From the IMG/VR virus record IMGVR_UViG_3300037067_006927, positions 26,121-90,120 of that record: a stretch of 64,000 bases of DNA; one strand, 5' to 3'. The stretch comes from a virus (lineage: Duplodnaviria; Caudoviricetes). This document shows, one piece after another, positions 17,431 through 30,807 of this stretch. Positions within the stretch are counted from its first letter, which is position 1; each line of letters begins with the position of its first letter. A model generated the notes under the pieces. That model saw only the letters and a program-made list of their open reading frames with translations. It was not told where the DNA came from and searched no databases. Position numbers and translations under genes: made by a program.

Positions 17431-17955
17431 ATGGCCAGGGGCAAGAAGCGGACACGCAAGGAGCACGGACCACAGTTCCGCGCTGCTGCCGTTGCCGAGG
17501 CACTGGCCGGAAACTCGCTGGATGTAGCTCGGTCACGAGGGGTCAGCGACAGGACACTGCGGCGCTGGATCGTCGAGTCGAAGACCAGCCCGGAGATGGC
17601 CGAAGACGTCCAGAGAAAGTCCGCGGCCATTGAGGCTGACTGGGCAGAGGACGCCAAGCGGGTAGCGCGCAAGATTCTGGGTGCTCTGGAGACGCTGATT
17701 GAGCAGGCGGTCGCAGAGTGCAAGGGCGGCGCCATTCCGGACAAGCGGATCTACGAGGTGGCCGGGGCGCTGAAGATCGTGGGCGAGCTTGGGATCACCA
17801 AGCAGGTGATGCCGGCTGCTGCCCCGGTAGTGCAGCCGAAGGTCGAGAGTCATGGGGAGCAGTCTGGAACTGATCGGCAAGGTCCGTCGGCTCCAGAAGC
17901 TGGCGGCGGATCCGTCGTCCCTATCCGCGGCGTCCGGCGTGCAGCCGCCGAGTGA
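17431..17955 (+). CDS. terminase small subunit (N-terminal HTH)
   Basis: FRAAAVAEALAGNSLDVARSRGVSDRTLRRW HTH plus helical body; immediately upstream of and overlapping TerL. Confidence 0.7.
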   Translation: MARGKKRTRKEHGPQFRAAAVAEALAGNSLDVARSRGVSDRTLRRWIVESKTSPEMAEDVQRKSAAIEADWAEDAKRVARKILGALETLIEQAVAECKGGAIPDKRIYEVAGALKIVGELGITKQVMPAAAPVVQPKVESHGEQSGTDRQGPSAPEAGGGSVVPIRGVRRAAAE

Positions 17956-19759
17956 CATCGACTGGATCAGATACCGCAAGTCTTTCGTCGAGTGGGCCGA
18001 GGGGCCCGTGGGCGTGGAGCTCACGGTTGCCCAGCGGACGATCGCGCTGGTTGCGTTCGATGGGTTCGACCCGGTAGAGCTGGACGACGAGCACCTGGCG
18101 ATGGCCCGCCGGCTATTTGGGCCGGTAGACCAGATCCCGGATTCCGCGCGGCGGGTACTCGCTGCGGTGTGCGGCGCCCGCGGTGGCAAGAGCGCGATCC
18201 TGTCGGCGCTCTACTCCCTGTGGCGAATGCTCACGGCGGACCTATCGTCGGTGGCACCCGGGGAGGTGGCATTCGCGGTAGTCGTGGCCCCGGACAAGGA
18301 CACGGCGAAGCAAGTCAGGAACTTCGTTGCCGGTCGGTGCGAGCATCCCGGCATCAAGTCGCTGATTGTTGGCGACCCCTCCGAGTCGATTCAACTGCGG
18401 CGCCCCGACGGGCATCTGGTGGAGTTCGCGGTTCGCGCCGCATCTCGAGGTGGCTCGGCAACCCGAGGCCGAACCTATGTCTCAGCGGTGCTCGATGAGG
18501 CCGCGTTCTTTCGTGACGCAGCGAGCGGAGTCGTCAACGACCAGGAGGTCTTCGATTCCGTCAATGCGCGCGTGCTGCCTGGCGGGCTCGTAATCGTCGC
18601 TTCGACGCCGTATGTCGAGGCGGGATTGCTGTTCAAGTTCTGGTCAGAGAACTTCGGAAATCCGAGTACGGCGCTGGTCGCCCATGCCCCGACGCTGCTG
18701 ATGCGCGAGGGCGGCCCCGAGTACGAGACGATCGAGGCGCAGGTCCGCGTTGCAACGGCGGTCGATGGCGAGAACGCCAGGCGCGAGTACGGCGCGGAGT
18801 TCATCTCGGTCGGTGGCGGCTTCTACTTCTCGAGCGAGCTGATCTCGAGATCCGTCAAGGACATCGCTCCAATTGTCGCTCGCCCAAACTTGGCAGCGAT
18901 TCGCGTCGGGTGCGGTGGCGACCTGGGGCTAGTCCGCGACTCTGCGGCGCTCGTCATTGTGCACGAGGTGGACGGAAAGATCACGGTTGCGGAGATCGTG
19001 GAGCGGCGCCCGGCAAAGGGCTCGCCACTGAGGCTCTCGCAAGTAGTGGCAGACTTCGCCGAGGCAATGGGCCGGCACCGAGTCAAGACGGCGCGCGTTG
19101 ACCATCACGCAATCGAGCCGGCGCGGGAACATGCGGCAGAGCACTCGATCAATCTCGAGCCCGCGCCCGGTGGAAACACTGGCAACGAAGAGACGTTCAC
19201 CGTCGCGCGCGAGGCGCTTCATTCCGGTGTCGTATCGATTCCGCGCGAGTACCAACTCGTCGCCGACCAACTCCGGGAGATCATAGCCGAGCCGCTGCCC
19301 GGTGGCGGCGTTTCATTCGTGAGCCCTCGCAAGGGTGGGCGCCACGGAGACGTGGCAAGAGCGCTGATCCTGGCACTCTGGGATCTGGAACAGGGGCAGA
19401 TCGACATCACCCCATCGATCGACGTCAACCGCCGACTCTCCGCCAACAAGGCGATGCAGTCGCGGTGGGGCGCCGGTGCCATGACGCCGCGGTTCATGGG
19501 CGGCGGGCTGGGCATGTTCAGCTCGATGCCGCAGAGCAGTCTGCCACGTCACGTTGCGCCTGTCAGTACGCCACCCGCGCCGACTACGATACAAGAGCCA
19601 CCGCTCTCTGTTGGTGCCGGCGCCTATCGCGTGGTCGGCCCCGGTTCGATCTCCCGCACGGTCAATCGGCAGCGGGTCCTGGTGCCCGCTGGTGCCGTTC
19701 TCAATCTCACGGCCGACGAGGCGCGCAGCTACGGTGCCGCCGTCACGCCGATCCAATAA
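17852..19759 (+). CDS. terL: terminase large subunit with an extra C-terminal domain
   Basis: Walker A GARGGKS, VVAP, Walker B AVLDEAAF, ASTP coupling motif, RNase H-like GGDLG..RDSA and HGDVARA. Confidence 0.92.
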   Translation: MGSSLELIGKVRRLQKLAADPSSLSAASGVQPPSDIDWIRYRKSFVEWAEGPVGVELTVAQRTIALVAFDGFDPVELDDEHLAMARRLFGPVDQIPDSARRVLAAVCGARGGKSAILSALYSLWRMLTADLSSVAPGEVAFAVVVAPDKDTAKQVRNFVAGRCEHPGIKSLIVGDPSESIQLRRPDGHLVEFAVRAASRGGSATRGRTYVSAVLDEAAFFRDAASGVVNDQEVFDSVNARVLPGGLVIVASTPYVEAGLLFKFWSENFGNPSTALVAHAPTLLMREGGPEYETIEAQVRVATAVDGENARREYGAEFISVGGGFYFSSELISRSVKDIAPIVARPNLAAIRVGCGGDLGLVRDSAALVIVHEVDGKITVAEIVERRPAKGSPLRLSQVVADFAEAMGRHRVKTARVDHHAIEPAREHAAEHSINLEPAPGGNTGNEETFTVAREALHSGVVSIPREYQLVADQLREIIAEPLPGGGVSFVSPRKGGRHGDVARALILALWDLEQGQIDITPSIDVNRRLSANKAMQSRWGAGAMTPRFMGGGLGMFSSMPQSSLPRHVAPVSTPPAPTTIQEPPLSVGAGAYRVVGPGSISRTVNRQRVLVPAGAVLNLTADEARSYGAAVTPIQ

Positions 19760-20585: not shown

Positions 20586-21200
20586 ATGCAAGGGCACTCT
20601 ACTGCGCTGGCGTCTCAGCGCTCGACCACCTTCCTGACGGCGGCGTCGCTCGCTGACGCGGACGCCTTCAAGACGCTGATCGCGACCGACCCAGCAGCGG
20701 CGCACACCTACTCGGCCGCAGATCTGAACGGCGCTCTGGCGAACCCGGGGCCCGTCACCGATCTCAAAATGCTGGTACCGCGCTTTCCGACGGTGACCAC
20801 GACTGCTGACGCGGCGACGTACAACACGACGGACCCGATCGTGTTCACGGGAACGCGCGGCGGACTGGCGGCGACGGTGTCGATCACGCTCACCCAGGCA
20901 GGCGGAGGCGAGACGCTGATCGGTGCCACTCCGCTCGACACGCTGACGTCGATTCACGTTCCGATCCAGCTCCAGAACATCGGTGAGTTCACCTTCGGCT
21001 TCAGCGGCGTCGCTGCTCGCAAGCGTAACGGAATGACGCAGCGGATGCCCTTCGAGGCGTTCGCCGATGGGATCGTGAAAGTCGGGTACGAGGACGGCAC
21101 TACCAACAGCCTGACGCTCGTGGCGCACGACGTTTCGCCAGCGAGCCCCTACCGCATCTATGCGGATACCACTGCCGTCGGCGTCATCGTCTACGACTGA
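20586..21200 (+). CDS. virion accessory protein sharing a domain with the tail-sheath insertion
   Basis: residues 24-138 align by eye with sheath residues 203-319. Confidence 0.65.
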   Translation: MQGHSTALASQRSTTFLTAASLADADAFKTLIATDPAAAHTYSAADLNGALANPGPVTDLKMLVPRFPTVTTTADAATYNTTDPIVFTGTRGGLAATVSITLTQAGGGETLIGATPLDTLTSIHVPIQLQNIGEFTFGFSGVAARKRNGMTQRMPFEAFADGIVKVGYEDGTTNSLTLVAHDVSPASPYRIYADTTAVGVIVYD

Positions 21201-21227: not shown

Positions 21228-22649
21228 ATGGCGGAGGAAACGAAGGGGGCGTCTGCCGCCAAGCCCGTGAGCAAGATTGCGAGCATTGCCGGACAGGCGT
21301 ACCGCGCAATCTCCGCATACGCGCGCGTGCTGAGCAAGACGCTGCTCCCCGAGATCCCGCTCTGGTCGCAGTTCAGTCGCATCGGCGGTGGCATCGGCCC
21401 ATCGGAGGTGTCGTCGATCCTGCGGGAGGCGGACACCGGTAGGCCAGCGCGGCTCGTCGATCTCGTTCACGAATGCCGCCAGAAGGACGGCCACCTACAG
21501 GCCACACTCGGCGTTCGCGAACTCGCGGTAGCCGGGCTCAAGTGGGGCATCGAGCCTCCGCCGGAAGCTGACGAAACCGAGAAGCGCTGCGCCGCACAGT
21601 GCGAAGCGGCTGTCCGCGCGAGCTCTGGATTCCACGTCCTGCTCGCTCACTTGACCGGAGAGGGATGCCTATTCCCGACGGGCGCCTGGGCGGAGATCGT
21701 GTGGGGAGTATCGACCGAGCGCGACTCGCTCGGGCTCGAGGTTCCGCTCTACACGAAGCCAATCAGTTGCCGACGATTCGGCTTCAAGCGCAGCGACGGG
21801 AAACTAGTATTCGTCGAGTACGGCAAGGACCCGGAGACGAGCGGCGTTGACCTGCTCGAGGAGTACGGACCCGGCAACTTCATCGTTCGACGCCCGCGCG
21901 TGAATGGCGACGTACCGGCGCGCGAGGGCCTGGCGTGTGTCATCACGTGGGATGCGGTCTTCCGCAACTGGGGTGTACGTGACTGGCTCGCCTGCGGTGA
22001 GATGAGTTGGCGTCCGTGGAGGATCGCCAGCTACGCGAAGGAGATCGAGAGCGAGAGCCGGACGGCGGCTGAAGAGGCGCTCGCGAATCTCACGGCGACG
22101 GGTTCAGCACTGCTGCCAAACACCGTCGAGATGAAAGTTGAGTGGCCCAAGGCGACCGGTTCCGGGACGCAGGGAGTCCACCGCGAACTGTGCGAGTTCT
22201 TCGGGCAGGAGATCAGCAAGGCAGTCCTCGGCCAGACGCTGACGACCGAGGCCGGCAGTCGGGGCGCTCGCTCACTCGGTCAGGTGCACGATGCGATCCG
22301 CCGTGACGTTCGCGAGGACGACGCTGTCGATGTGGCTGCGGCTCTCGACCAATACATGATCACTCCGTTCTATCAGTTCAACTGGGGCGAGGGAGTCCGC
22401 CGCGGGCACTTCGTCTTCTACACCGAGGACGGCGTCGACATGACGACGCTGGCCGACGTGATCCAGAAGATCGCTCCGTTCGTCGATATCCCCCAGGCGT
22501 GGGTCCGCAACGAACTCGGGGCGCCGGAACCGAAAGATGGAGAACCGATCTGCCAAGAGCGGGCAACCGCAGGCACCGATCCGTCCGGAGGTGGAGACAC
22601 CGACACCGACGAATCGGAAGACGACGACGAGCAAGACGACGCGGCGTGA
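21228..22649 (+). CDS. portal protein, DUF935 (Mu gp29-like) family
   Basis: KDGHLQATLGVRELAV..LKW.IEP, RDWL, EISKAVLGQTLTTE, RSLGQVHDAIR.D. Confidence 0.9.
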   Translation: MAEETKGASAAKPVSKIASIAGQAYRAISAYARVLSKTLLPEIPLWSQFSRIGGGIGPSEVSSILREADTGRPARLVDLVHECRQKDGHLQATLGVRELAVAGLKWGIEPPPEADETEKRCAAQCEAAVRASSGFHVLLAHLTGEGCLFPTGAWAEIVWGVSTERDSLGLEVPLYTKPISCRRFGFKRSDGKLVFVEYGKDPETSGVDLLEEYGPGNFIVRRPRVNGDVPAREGLACVITWDAVFRNWGVRDWLACGEMSWRPWRIASYAKEIESESRTAAEEALANLTATGSALLPNTVEMKVEWPKATGSGTQGVHRELCEFFGQEISKAVLGQTLTTEAGSRGARSLGQVHDAIRRDVREDDAVDVAAALDQYMITPFYQFNWGEGVRRGHFVFYTEDGVDMTTLADVIQKIAPFVDIPQAWVRNELGAPEPKDGEPICQERATAGTDPSGGGDTDTDESEDDDEQDDAA

Positions 22650-22718
22650 GTGGGAGCGCGACAAGCGCTTCTCACGCCCCGGATACACGGACCGCCTCGC
22701 GCGGGCAGGGGTGACGAG

Positions 22719-23063
22719 ATGAAGGAAAACGTTTCGGTGGACGAAGTGATCGAGCTGTTGAACGAGTCCTTCCGTCTGGATCCGGAGTGGGCGCACAACT
22801 TCGTCGAGACGCGCACGAAGTGCAACGACGCGGTGGCCGATCACCAGACGATCCAGTCCGGCACTCGTGATGGCATCAAGCACGTGGGGCCGCTGGGGTT
22901 CTTGAACGGACTGTTTGGCGTGGACGATCGTGGGTATGGTCCGATTGCCGCCAGTTACGACGACAAATCGTCGGTCGCGAGCGTGCGCCCGGTGACGGCG
23001 AGGTTGACCGGATTCTGCCGCACACCAGGCGCACAGCCTGTCGGCAGCGACGCTGACGAATAA
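22719..23063 (+). CDS. hypothetical protein
   Basis: MKENVSVDEVIELLNE... GPLGFLNGLFG; between portal and protease. Confidence 0.6.
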   Translation: MKENVSVDEVIELLNESFRLDPEWAHNFVETRTKCNDAVADHQTIQSGTRDGIKHVGPLGFLNGLFGVDDRGYGPIAASYDDKSSVASVRPVTARLTGFCRTPGAQPVGSDADE

Positions 23064-24723: not shown

Positions 24724-25872
24724 ATGTCTACCAACATCCACGAACACGTCGCCCGTAGCGATAAGGGCATCGCCTCCGAGAAGCAGCTCAACGAGCTGAT
24801 CCGGACGCTGACCAATCCACCGAACGAGGCGGTCGCCAAGGACGTCGAGGCGATGAACGAGCGGATCCGCTTCCGGATTCGGCGCGCCACTGGTGGGCTT
24901 CAGGTCACGCCCGAGACGGCGATGGAACTGATCGCTCGTGAGTTGACCGTCGGCGACGTGCAGACGACGCCGGTGCTCCAGAACTTCTCGCAGATGTACG
25001 CGAATGACGAGTACATTGGCACGCGCATCATGCCGGTGGTTCCCGTTCCGCTCGGCACCGGATCCGCGTCGTACTGGACCCACGACCAGGCGAACGCCTT
25101 CACGGCTCCCGATGACTCGATCGCCACCGGTGGCACCGTCAACGAGGTGACCGAGGGGCTGACTCCAACCAGCGTAACGCTGCTCCCGCGCGCGTTGCAG
25201 GAGCGCCTCGACGTGAGGGTCAAGGCGGCCATGGACGCGCCGGTGGCACAGATGGTCACCCCGCTGCTCACCGTGCTGGACGGGCTCTTGCTGAACCAAG
25301 AGGTCCGGATCGCGGCCATCGCTGGCGTGGCTGGCAGCTACGGCGCCAACACCGCTCCGATCGCGGCACTGGATCGGTGGAGCACCGCGGCTGGTGGCGA
25401 TCCCGGTGGCGACATCGATACCGCCAAGGCGGCTCTGTTCGGTGGCAGTTCTCCGTCGCTGACGGTCGGCTTCTGCTCGCTCGCCGTCTACAACGTGTTG
25501 CGCCGGAATCCGGTCATCCTCGACCACTTCAAGTACACGGGTCGCGACGTGCTCGGGCGCCGGCAACTGGCCGACTACCTCGAGCTCGACGAACTGCTCG
25601 TGGGCGCTGCGCGGCGTAACACCGCGCTCCCCGGCGTGGCAGCCGTCTACGCCAGAATCTGGCCGGACGTCTTCGGCGTCGTGCGAGTTCCTCGGATGCC
25701 AGCCGTCAAGGTCGCGACGTTCGGGATCACGCTCGAAGAGCCGAAGAGCGAGATGGAATGGTTCGAGGCTGCCGAAGGCGGATGGGGCGCGTTCCACAGC
25801 AAGGTCGCGTTCGCTGATGCCAGCGTGGTGGTCAGCAACGCCTGCGGATTCCTCTACACCACCCCGATCTGA
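24724..25872 (+). CDS. major capsid protein (HK97 fold, lambda gpE-like)
   Basis: 382 aa after cement; Y.NDEYIG.RIMPVVPV, LLNQEVRIA, LADYLELDELLVG. Confidence 0.85.
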   Translation: MSTNIHEHVARSDKGIASEKQLNELIRTLTNPPNEAVAKDVEAMNERIRFRIRRATGGLQVTPETAMELIARELTVGDVQTTPVLQNFSQMYANDEYIGTRIMPVVPVPLGTGSASYWTHDQANAFTAPDDSIATGGTVNEVTEGLTPTSVTLLPRALQERLDVRVKAAMDAPVAQMVTPLLTVLDGLLLNQEVRIAAIAGVAGSYGANTAPIAALDRWSTAAGGDPGGDIDTAKAALFGGSSPSLTVGFCSLAVYNVLRRNPVILDHFKYTGRDVLGRRQLADYLELDELLVGAARRNTALPGVAAVYARIWPDVFGVVRVPRMPAVKVATFGITLEEPKSEMEWFEAAEGGWGAFHSKVAFADASVVVSNACGFLYTTPI

Positions 25873-25881
25873 GGCTGAACC

Positions 25882-26340
25882 ATGGCGGAGCAGAGCAGTA
25901 AGGGGGACCTCCGAGGGTCCTCCGCCACGAGCACCAAACAACCGGACGCCGGCCAACAGTCGGCGCCCGCAACCAAGACAGGACCAGAGATCTACTACGT
26001 CAGGGGACCTGGCTCGATCTCGCGCAGCATCTCGGCCAACGGGCGCGCACCGATGCGCGTTCTCATCCCAGCTGGCGAACTGGTCGAGCTCACGGAGGAA
26101 GAGGCGGCGGGATACGGAGACGCAGTCGTACTCGGCACTCCTCCTCCTCCACCGACTGCTATTTCAGCGCGCAAGGCTGGACGGTATCGAGTCGCCGGTC
26201 CCGGCAAGGTCAAGCACGGTGGCGGTGTCGGCGCGGACGGGAAGTACGTGCCCGGCGTGTTCCATGTCGCCGGGACGGTCCTGAACCTGACCGAGGAAGA
26301 CGCGCGCTCACTAGGCGCGTCGGTAGTCGAAGCCGTCTGA
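25882..26340 (+). CDS. head-associated protein with two copies of a Y.V.GPG...AG..V.LT.EEA..G domain
   Basis: internal repeat at 25990-26133 and 26182-26337; follows the MCP. Confidence 0.7.
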   Translation: MAEQSSKGDLRGSSATSTKQPDAGQQSAPATKTGPEIYYVRGPGSISRSISANGRAPMRVLIPAGELVELTEEEAAGYGDAVVLGTPPPPPTAISARKAGRYRVAGPGKVKHGGGVGADGKYVPGVFHVAGTVLNLTEEDARSLGASVVEAV

Positions 26341-26358: not shown

Positions 26359-26829
26359 ATGGCGTGGGAGTTCATCACTCAGGTGCAACTCTCGCGCCGG
26401 ATCTCACCAGACCGTCTGCGGCGCATCTATGACGACAGCCTGGTTGGTACTGCCGACGTCGACGCGGTGACGCAACTTCGGCGAGATGCGTCGAGCAAGG
26501 TGGCCAGCTATCTCGTCGGGATCACCGATCTGAACGCGGTGCAGGCGGCCGCAACTGCTGACGCCGCGCATGAGGTGGTACGACTCACGCTCGACGTTGC
26601 GGTGGCGATGGCCACGCAGCGATTCCCCGAGGTCGTCCAGACGCTCGATTGGGAAGCGCTGATGAAGCAGGCCGACAAGGACCTGAAGATGCTGCGTGAG
26701 TCGTTCACGCAACTCGACACGGAGCTCACGCCGAACCCGCCAGCGAACGTCGGTGGGACCGTCTATCCGGATCCTGATTCAACGACTCGTCCGCACACGT
26801 TCCACCAGGACGGCTTCGGGGACTTCTGA
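26359..26829 (+). CDS. head-tail adaptor (Mu gp36/DUF1320-like)
   Basis: FITQ.QL..RI...L..IYDD, DASSKVASYL, RLTLDVAV, ADKDLKML. Confidence 0.8.
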   Translation: MAWEFITQVQLSRRISPDRLRRIYDDSLVGTADVDAVTQLRRDASSKVASYLVGITDLNAVQAAATADAAHEVVRLTLDVAVAMATQRFPEVVQTLDWEALMKQADKDLKMLRESFTQLDTELTPNPPANVGGTVYPDPDSTTRPHTFHQDGFGDF

Positions 26830-28929: not shown

Positions 28930-30807
28930 ATGGCACTGTTATCTCTTCCCGGAATCGGCGCGACTGACAAGGTGCCCATGGCGCCGAGTCAGAACTTGTA
29001 CGGACAGGGAGCCTCGTCTGGCTCGCGTCCCTGGTTCGTCTGCTGCACCGGCAACAAGGTCGCTGCCGGCAGCATGACCGCCGATATCGACGTCCTCCCC
29101 GTCTACTCCGAGTCCGAGGTTGCCACGCTGGTCGGCGCCCGCTCGGAGATCGCACAGCAGGCACGCGAGGCGCTCGCGTCCGGCGCCGCGGTCATCCTCG
29201 CTCCCGTGCTCGAGGCGGCAGGCGGTGTCGCCGCAACGCTCGTCCTGCACTATGAGACGGTCGGCTCCGGCACCGGAAGCGTCACGCTCTACGTCGGCGA
29301 CGAGACGGTGTCATTCGTCTGCGATGTGACGTCGAAGCAGACCACCATGAACGCCGCCGCGACTGCGGTGAATGCGAAGTCGACGCTCTTCTGCGTCGCC
29401 ACGGTGGGCGGTGCTCCGGACTACGACGTGACGCTTACCTGCGCCAACGCTGGCCTTCGCGGAAACGACTGGCTCGCCAAGGCGGACACGACCGCTGCGC
29501 CCGCCGGCTCTGCGTGGACGTTCGGGTTCGCCGAGGACGTCGACTCGGTCATGCTGTCCTTCGCCACGACGGCCGGAGCCACGCACTATGGCGATCACGG
29601 CGGCGCAACCGGTCCACTCACCGGCGCTCTGGTGGTCGGCGGAGACGCGCTGTGCCCCCCTGCTCGTCGCGTGACGGTGACCGTTGCTGCTTCGGTTGGC
29701 AGCTACGTCAATCTCTCCGAGATCACGGTGACCGGCACGACTCTCGCCGGAGCTCCGCTGGTTGAGGTTCTTGTCATCACCGGCACCGCCGGTGGCATTC
29801 TGCTCACCACGGTCGGTTCGTTCGCCACGGTGAACCGAATCGACATCGAGGCGCAGGCCGACGCGAACGGCCACTTCCAGATCGGCACCGAGTATTCGGA
29901 CGGAGTCGAGACGACTGCCGGATACGTGCACTTCACCGGCGGAACCGGTTCCGACGACTGCTCGAACGTCATCAATCTGCTCGAGGCTACGGAGTACCGG
30001 CGCATCGCTGCGGCGCAGAACGACGCCGTCAACGCTGCCCGGTGGGAGGCGCACGCTGACTCCGAATCGGCGCCGCTGCTCGACCACCTGGAGCAGATCA
30101 TCTTCGGCCACAACGGCACCAGCGCCGCGGCAATCTCGCTCGCTCAGACGACGCTCAACGCCTTCCTCTGTGCCATGTACCCGCGCCGGAACTCTCGCAA
30201 GCACCCGTGCCAGATCGCGGCCAAGGTGGCGGCCAATCGCGCCGTGTACGAGGCGCAGAATCCGCACGAGCGATTCGACGGCAAGTGGAACGACCAGGGC
30301 AGCAAGCTCTGGACTACCGTTTCCGCGGCCGCATCTGACGAGTGGACGCACGCCGAGATGGTCGCTCTCCTGGACGCCGGCTGCTCGCCGTTGCACGACT
30401 TCGGCGGGACCACCTGCATCGTCCGGAGCGTCACCAGCCACTCGCTCAACGGTACCGACCCCGACTGGCGTTGCCTGGATACGGCGTGGGTCACGGTGTC
30501 GCAGCGCGTCCGCGATGACGTCGAGGCACTGGCCACGACCGAGGCCGAGAACAACACAGGAGTCGGACCAGACCTGCCAGATGGGATGCCGCAGATCAGC
30601 GGACGCAGCACGCCGAAGATCTGGAACGGCACCGTCAACGCATACCTCGAAGAGAAGGAACGCGCTGGCTGGCTGAAGGACGTCGCGTTGAACCCTCCGA
30701 TCACGGAGTACAACGACGACGCCGACAGGCTCGAGACGATCGTGCCGTGCGTGGTGTGTCCGCACCAGCACCAGATCTTCACGTCGGTTCGGCAGATCGC
30801 CGGCTGA
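28930..30807 (+). CDS. contractile tail sheath protein (Mu gpL-like) with inserted domain
   Basis: GARSEIAQ, GSVTLYVG, VTLTCANAGLRGND, GGTGSDD, LLDAGCSPL, IVRSVT. Confidence 0.9.
   Translation: MALLSLPGIGATDKVPMAPSQNLYGQGASSGSRPWFVCCTGNKVAAGSMTADIDVLPVYSESEVATLVGARSEIAQQAREALASGAAVILAPVLEAAGGVAATLVLHYETVGSGTGSVTLYVGDETVSFVCDVTSKQTTMNAAATAVNAKSTLFCVATVGGAPDYDVTLTCANAGLRGNDWLAKADTTAAPAGSAWTFGFAEDVDSVMLSFATTAGATHYGDHGGATGPLTGALVVGGDALCPPARRVTVTVAASVGSYVNLSEITVTGTTLAGAPLVEVLVITGTAGGILLTTVGSFATVNRIDIEAQADANGHFQIGTEYSDGVETTAGYVHFTGGTGSDDCSNVINLLEATEYRRIAAAQNDAVNAARWEAHADSESAPLLDHLEQIIFGHNGTSAAAISLAQTTLNAFLCAMYPRRNSRKHPCQIAAKVAANRAVYEAQNPHERFDGKWNDQGSKLWTTVSAAASDEWTHAEMVALLDAGCSPLHDFGGTTCIVRSVTSHSLNGTDPDWRCLDTAWVTVSQRVRDDVEALATTEAENNTGVGPDLPDGMPQISGRSTPKIWNGTVNAYLEEKERAGWLKDVALNPPITEYNDDADRLETIVPCVVCPHQHQIFTSVRQIAG

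Follow-up and report, generated by a model that had tools for sequence, protein, structure and literature searches.

Why should the large terminase of a phage end in a domain that the same phage encodes twice more in a small protein just behind its major capsid gene? The question is raised by a 64,000-nucleotide stretch of DNA (the window), which comprises bases 26121-90120 of the IMG/VR virus record IMGVR_UViG_3300037067_006927; the record is 90,120 bp long, is rated complete by CheckV and belongs to an uncultivated 90-kb phage. How a terminase locates a prohead's one portal vertex and stays bound to it is only partly understood, and accessory bridging factors are known in few systems, for example lambda gpFI and the phi29 pRNA. 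What is new here is a large terminase (TerL) bearing an added docking-type domain which it shares with a post-capsid protein. This rare natural fusion suggests that a widespread unnamed domain has a part in docking the packaging apparatus onto empty heads. The elements in question are the following:

17852..19759, plus strand: fused TerL open reading frame (ORF), 635 aa, with its TAA stop at 19757..19759
17852..19519, plus strand: TerL core, residues 1-556, with ATPase, RNase H-like nuclease and the family's usual C-terminal tail
19520..19618, plus strand: Pro/Ser/Thr-rich linker, residues 557-589, which contains the in-frame ATG at 19526
19619..19756, plus strand: DUF7210-type domain, residues 590-635, at the C-terminus of TerL
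25882..26340, plus strand: small post-capsid protein, 152 aa, with DUF7210 repeat 1 at 25990-26136 and repeat 2 at 26179-26337

The relationship between the TerL tail and the small protein, which the first-pass annotation of this DNA had proposed, is significant for both repeats. A BLASTP comparison of the last 81 TerL residues with the 152-aa ORF matched repeat 1 at E 1e-11 (46% identity) and repeat 2 at E 3e-7 (42%), and hidden Markov models (HMMs) of the two repeats, built from 35 relatives with the window phage's own copies left out, gave the TerL tail 47.3 and 49.8 bits, respectively, while the phage's own repeats reached 55-57 bits. The heptapeptide GPGSISR of the tail is identical in repeat 1, as had been pointed out, and the conserved positions of the family (Y, V, GPG, G, L-T, A, G, V) are all kept. 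The extent given earlier for the domain, 19622-19756, was correct at its end (Q635, 19756); its start has to be moved, with Y592 lying one codon later at 19625. Assigning the tail to one particular repeat fails, as the two are equidistant (47 against 50 bits). At the DNA level, no similarity of the tail to its paralogues was detected, with a local alignment score of 26 against 20.2 +/- 2.6 for codon shuffles. A duplication still visible in the DNA was accordingly rejected, and the TerL copy must be old. Judged by sequence, the TerL domain is an old paralogue of both repeats in the post-capsid protein.

Most members of this family match Pfam DUF7210 (PF23843): 29 of 36 at E<=0.01 (best 3e-10), and 34 when E<=10 is allowed. 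The 152-aa protein itself reaches 14.9 bits (E 0.019), which is under the 27-bit gathering cut-off, and the TerL tail gives no PF23843 match at E<=1. In an ESM Atlas model of TerL made without a multiple sequence alignment (MSA), residues 589-635 match DUF7210 clusters with a template modelling (TM) score of 0.74, and also a cluster named after the FluMu N-terminal domain (FluMu_N) with a TM score of 0.71. A literature search for DUF7210 found no paper naming the family, a profile search of the PDB with the domain family returned only chance matches to a Clp_N motif and thus no solved structure with the domain by sequence, and none of 50,697 phage genomes was matched by tblastn with the 152-aa protein.

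The borders of the appendage can be read from the nearest TerL relatives, P0002 and P0003 (64-67% identity, both 506 aa), which end in a short Gly/aromatic tail that aligns up to F556 of the window TerL. As M555-F556 align with the last residues of these two proteins, the appendage proper begins at 19520, and from there the window TerL runs on in frame for another 79 residues, first through the linker (557-589) and then through the 46-residue domain (590-635). The linker was not found in any TerL relative; in an alignment it falls opposite the Pro-rich stretch that joins the two repeats in the 152-aa family, and its GC content at third codon positions (GC3) is just 0.59. In the domain, GC by codon position in the TerL frame (0.73/0.56/0.80) resembles that of the core (0.70/0.48/0.79), so that the TerL frame is the coding frame of the domain. 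An AlphaFold2 (AF2) model has low confidence in the linker and is uninformative for the tail domain, the MSA having no cover there.

A missed stop codon, a frameshift or a chimeric join could in principle turn two genes into one, and the first-pass annotation had named a stop lost in assembly near this point as grounds for giving up the fusion. All sequences concerned do come from metagenome assemblies, of which the Logan and the Joint Genome Institute (JGI) ones might stem from related samples. Yet three sequences make up the 90%-identity cluster to which this TerL belongs, namely the 90-kb record, a 9.4-kb Logan contig (SRR18595300) produced by a different assembler and a 5-kb JGI contig, and all encode the same 635-aa ORF with an identical tail, the sole difference being E480K elsewhere in the protein. 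The Logan contig carries the same neighbouring genes, coding-type GC3 persists through the domain, and the DNA holds no repeat able to mislead an assembler. With three assemblies carrying the fused ORF, one isolated assembly error is an unlikely cause, and an artefact of any of these kinds is hardly credible to us. The in-frame TerL-DUF7210 fusion is real at the DNA level and is confined to one phage lineage.

A real reading frame does not settle which product is made from it, and it had been suggested that the domain might also be produced separately from the in-frame ATGs at 19514 (M555) or 19526 (M559). Such a protein, made in addition to the fused form or in its place, would have 77-81 aa and would come from a nested gene of the kind known from Mu I/Z and lambda C/Nu3. 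Two such codons indeed stand at the junction, Mu-type head modules have nested in-frame genes (protease I and scaffold Z), and a single-repeat DUF7210 protein of 76 aa (P0214) exists elsewhere. Most neighbouring genes carry GAGG, GAAGG or AGGAG 6-13 nt upstream, though, whereas neither ATG has a Shine-Dalgarno-like motif of the GAGG/GAAGG type, and separate expression from these starts is therefore unlikely. The first of the two codons also belongs to M555-F556, the ancestral end of TerL, and the gene callers in all three assemblies chose the long ORF. A separate small protein is thus a very unlikely product of this locus.

The enzyme to which the domain is joined is a genuine large terminase, as indicated by its homologues, conserved residues and fold. 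Pfam, PHROG and PDB sequence searches with the ORF itself gave zero matches, so its membership in the TerL family rests on transitive homology together with fold. Its homologues number over 300, most of them 490-530 aa long; several, at 39-57% identity, bear PF03237 or PF17289 (Terminase_6N/6C). In a 69-sequence alignment, Walker A (G108-x3-G112-K113-S114) and Walker B (D215-E216) fall in invariant or near-invariant columns, with G108, G112, E216, D357 and D500 invariant, nuclease aspartates included. The AF2 model has a predicted local distance difference test score (pLDDT) above 90 across residues 40-515, and Foldseek matched it to HK97 TerL (6z6d, E 2.5e-17) and also to T4 gp17, D6E and Sf6 gp2; the nuclease domain superposes on that of G20c TerL with a target TM score of 0.77 and a root-mean-square deviation (rmsd) of 2.7. 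Started at its first ATG, the ORF overlaps the upstream ORF by 104 nt (17852-17955). The true start of TerL may lie downstream of 17852, because the JGI gene call (P0126) puts the first codon at residue 30 (17939) and similarity to relatives sets in near residue 45. At the other end of the protein, about a third of the TerL relatives (40 of 119, from the C-termini of P0002-P0120) finish in G-[FYW](-G), often after S-R-W, which looks like a conserved C-terminal linear motif and is possibly a portal-contact peptide; in the window TerL this motif is degenerate and internal (19440-19519).

How unusual is the added domain among terminases? An HMM scan of TerL ends was used here, as a global MAFFT alignment stretched the termini and was uninformative. 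The scan found the domain in 3 of 122 TerL-family sequences, all of them from the window phage's own 90%-identity cluster, and in none of the other 119. A word-index search with TerL residues 555-635 among proteins of 349-1112 aa returned only the query protein itself. When 1.84 billion representatives were searched by profile, no TerL core was present among the best 150 of at least 252 matches, and the true DUF7210 proteins (PF23843) among these 150 all measured 76-224 aa, in contrast to the window copy on its 635-aa enzyme, the like of which was not found elsewhere; the 102 or more weaker matches may include further single-domain fusions. The appendage is thus as exceptional as had been supposed: HMMs, proposed as a check and built here from the repeats of other phages, confirmed the homology, and the fusion did not recur outside its own cluster in the 122 TerL-family sequences. 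Giant proteins with 5-26 matched stretches were rejected as spurious summed matches, having K319L-like PKD repeats with a VSGPG...LRLTA pattern. Such PKD-repeat giants (P0130, P0133, P0134 and about 90 others, with VSGPGxVTF ... GxYVLRLTAxD) score down to E 1e-41 against the DUF7210-family profile; the resemblance is likely convergent and is a trap for profile searches.

A fusion this rare may also be without function. According to this explanation, recombination placed a DUF7210 segment after TerL and removed the stop, perhaps recently, leaving a domain without a role that does no harm because its linker is flexible. The fusion is found in one 90%-identity cluster only, the nearest TerL relatives lack the domain, the family's usual C-terminal end motif is kept just upstream of the appendage, and the phage structural modules near TerL genes of this clade form a pronounced mosaic. 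The last point comes from 37 prophage loci with a related TerL (L014-L050), in which the terminase aligns only up to about residue 549 and just two (L016 and L047) share the window's type of major capsid protein (MCP), which indicates strong mosaicism between terminase and head modules. A useless domain should decay, however, unless it has arrived by recent transfer from an unsampled donor, and the TerL copy, despite having no DNA similarity to its paralogues, has kept all conserved positions and a codon-position GC like that of expressed genes. An accident without consequence is, in our view, improbable. The related TerL genes lie almost entirely in metagenome-assembled genomes of Polyangiaceae/Myxococcota, and the host of the phage is therefore probably a myxobacterium.

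Any role for the domain on TerL must be considered together with that of the free two-repeat protein. Its gene lies in a Mu-type head module which surrounds the TerL gene and has the order helix-turn-helix (HTH)/small terminase (TerS), TerL, two unnamed genes, portal, prohead protease/scaffold, small scaffold-like gene, MCP, 152-aa ORF and head-tail adaptor. Those of its other members that bear on the argument are:

17431..17955, plus strand: putative small terminase, 174 aa, HTH (Pfam HTH_Tnp_1, E 5.7e-5), directly 5' of TerL
21228..22649, plus strand: Mu-type portal (Pfam Portal_Mu, E 2.6e-61)
24724..25872, plus strand: major capsid protein (phrog_1005 major head protein, E 3e-43)
26359..26829, plus strand: head-tail adaptor, Mu gp36-like (phrog_195 head-tail adaptor)

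In the window, and likewise in L004, L005, L006, L008 and L016, a gene with two DUF7210 copies is flanked by the genes for the MCP and for a Mu gp36-like adaptor; the adaptor equivalents of L004, L006 and L008 match Pfam Phage_Mu_Gp36. The window MCP is 51% identical to that of L008, and the MCPs of L008 and L006 weakly match Pfam Phage_cap_E. Members of the protein family begin with a disordered stretch, after which come repeats 1 and 2, separated by a Pro-rich linker; in an AF2 model of the 152-aa protein (mean pLDDT 80.6), each repeat consists of four short strands, then a helix and one more short strand. Foldseek with this two-repeat model found nothing at E<=0.001 in the PDB and BFVD. The best VIA-align hits were the GINS B-domain (Z 5.0), then the bL9 N-domain and SH3-like/TagH folds, with Z 3.4 for both the C-domain of lambda gpFI and B. 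subtilis YqbF, all of them under the tool's noise guide. The IMG gene call for this protein starts at M58 (95 aa, P0121), which halves repeat 1, while the Logan call (P0127) has the full 152 aa; the long form is favoured because it is backed by the relatives and by the homology of the TerL tail. At L047, the slot behind the MCP (17444-17872) is filled by a different protein of 142 aa without a match to the DUF7210 HMMs, the last ~40 residues of which have a similar strand/Gly/strand/helix pattern, so that the slot may hold a diverse superfamily.

The reading that we favour, with slightly more doubt than confidence, takes DUF7210 as a small prohead-docking module. The domain would dock on the empty head, either on the capsid lattice or at the portal vertex, and on TerL it would serve as a flexible tether, keeping either the motor or a complex of terminase and DNA attached to the prohead up to the moment at which TerL's own C-terminal tail finds the portal. 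Such a tether would be the cis counterpart of a chaperone of the lambda gpFI type, which works in trans. Domain-fusion logic would then place the free two-repeat protein in the same step, with a part in prohead-terminase engagement and not as a passive structural component. The first-pass annotation had called the product of 25882-26340 a post-packaging head protein. [quoted passage not shown]

The likeness to gpFI (PF14000, 2LSM) lies in gene position, as the next gene behind that for the major capsid protein and ahead of the one for head-tail joining (E-FI-FII), and in architecture, both being small proteins in which a disordered N-terminal part precedes a small C-terminal domain of strands plus a helix. 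The family described here differs in its two tandem domains, and we know of no gpFI fused to a terminase. Clusters labelled Packaging_FI rank first/second among ESM feature matches of the small protein and the TerL tail (0.82 and 0.80), and hhalign of the family with a five-sequence FI alignment gave P 0.012 over 23 columns covering the last strand and the helix (E 0.41 with lambda FI alone). As for TerL, its extreme C-terminus is thought to contact the portal, the procapsid or both (PMC5389665). The window appendage occupies, on a flexible linker, the same C-terminal place as the tails of lambda gpA, T3 gp19, T4 gp17 and P74-26 TerL. These known tails are short peptides, whereas the window TerL keeps its ancestral tail and adds a folded domain shared with a head-module protein.

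Several observations count against a docking tether of the gpFI kind. One in three shuffled proteins attains an ESM score near 0.8, the VIA-align match to the gpFI C-domain (2lsm) has an rmsd of 4.4 A over 56 residues and lies inside the tool's noise range, and no PF14000 match was obtained in the 36 family members at E<=10; the gpFI link thus falls under significance on every measure. As each signal is weak and PF14000 is not matched, gpFI should be taken as a functional analogy and not as a family assignment. Among the 37 related-TerL prophage loci, only L016 has the gene with two DUF7210 copies, which shows that DUF7210 is no general partner of this TerL clade. Finally, with one lineage carrying the fusion, a tolerated accident is conceivable.

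Docking at the portal would also allow a different outcome, which builds on the competition for one site and the switch put forward in the first-pass annotation. The domain would bind the portal vertex, and the free protein would compete with TerL and displace the motor at the end of packaging, giving a hand-over or termination switch, or becoming the first component of a neck or plug. Contact with the portal is the norm for TerL C-termini (PMC5389665), the small protein has a weak PHROG match to a 'neck protein' family (E 0.007), Mu gp35 as its positional equivalent is labelled a head-to-tail connector complex protein in the Mu GenBank record, and two repeats per chain would be expected to outcompete one tethered copy by avidity. 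The neck of the Mu virion, on the other hand, consists of portal gp29, adaptor gp36 and terminator gp37, with gp35 not resolved (PMC11915804), the window phage already encodes an adaptor next door, and no known adaptor or stopper that binds the portal matches the domain in fold. Because the Mu neck is complete without gp35 and the phage has an adaptor of its own, competition at the portal is rated below the tether, and we consider it unlikely.

Mu gp35 and its H. influenzae FluMu counterpart HI1506 (FluMu_N, PF17891) share with the small protein the slot from MCP to gp36, within a head module of Mu type that includes a Mu-type portal. Mu gp35 itself matches FluMu_N at E 1.8e-10, but none of the 36 family members does, and hhalign of the family with Mu gp35 is not significant (E 0.18); the likeness to FluMu_N is structural only, namely the ESM Atlas match of the TerL domain. 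Mu TerL has no such appendage according to its record annotation. The post-capsid small proteins of many tailed phages (the candidates being DUF7210, DUF7302, FluMu_N/Mu gp35 and perhaps the gpFI C-domain) could form one superfamily of prohead-docking packaging chaperones, which is an attractive but rather doubtful idea. If it were true, the TerL-DUF7210 fusion would be a 'Rosetta stone' tying post-capsid proteins to terminase, in the form of a motor with its own capsid tether. The fusion offers a direct functional lead for the widespread DUF7210 and, by fold, perhaps for Mu gp35 as well. Tethering predicts that the 46-residue domain binds to proheads; were this true, the idea of a gpFI-type chaperone would reach well beyond lambdoid phages.

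The remainder of the module adds some minor observations. The ORF at 17431..17955 is probably the small terminase, an assignment made by position only; the same layout of a TerS-like ORF followed by TerL is present in the contig of the relative P0002. GC content in the window is about 65%. No MuF/gp30-like minor head protein was recognised in the window's Mu-type module. Between portal and protease, a 137-aa ORF (22650-23063) matches phrog_21281, a family of unknown function, at E 1.6e-10, and a free gene for 204 aa (20586-21200) shows marginal similarity to the insertion in the tail sheath (28930-30807), with BLASTP E 0.017 and 30% identity over 79 residues.

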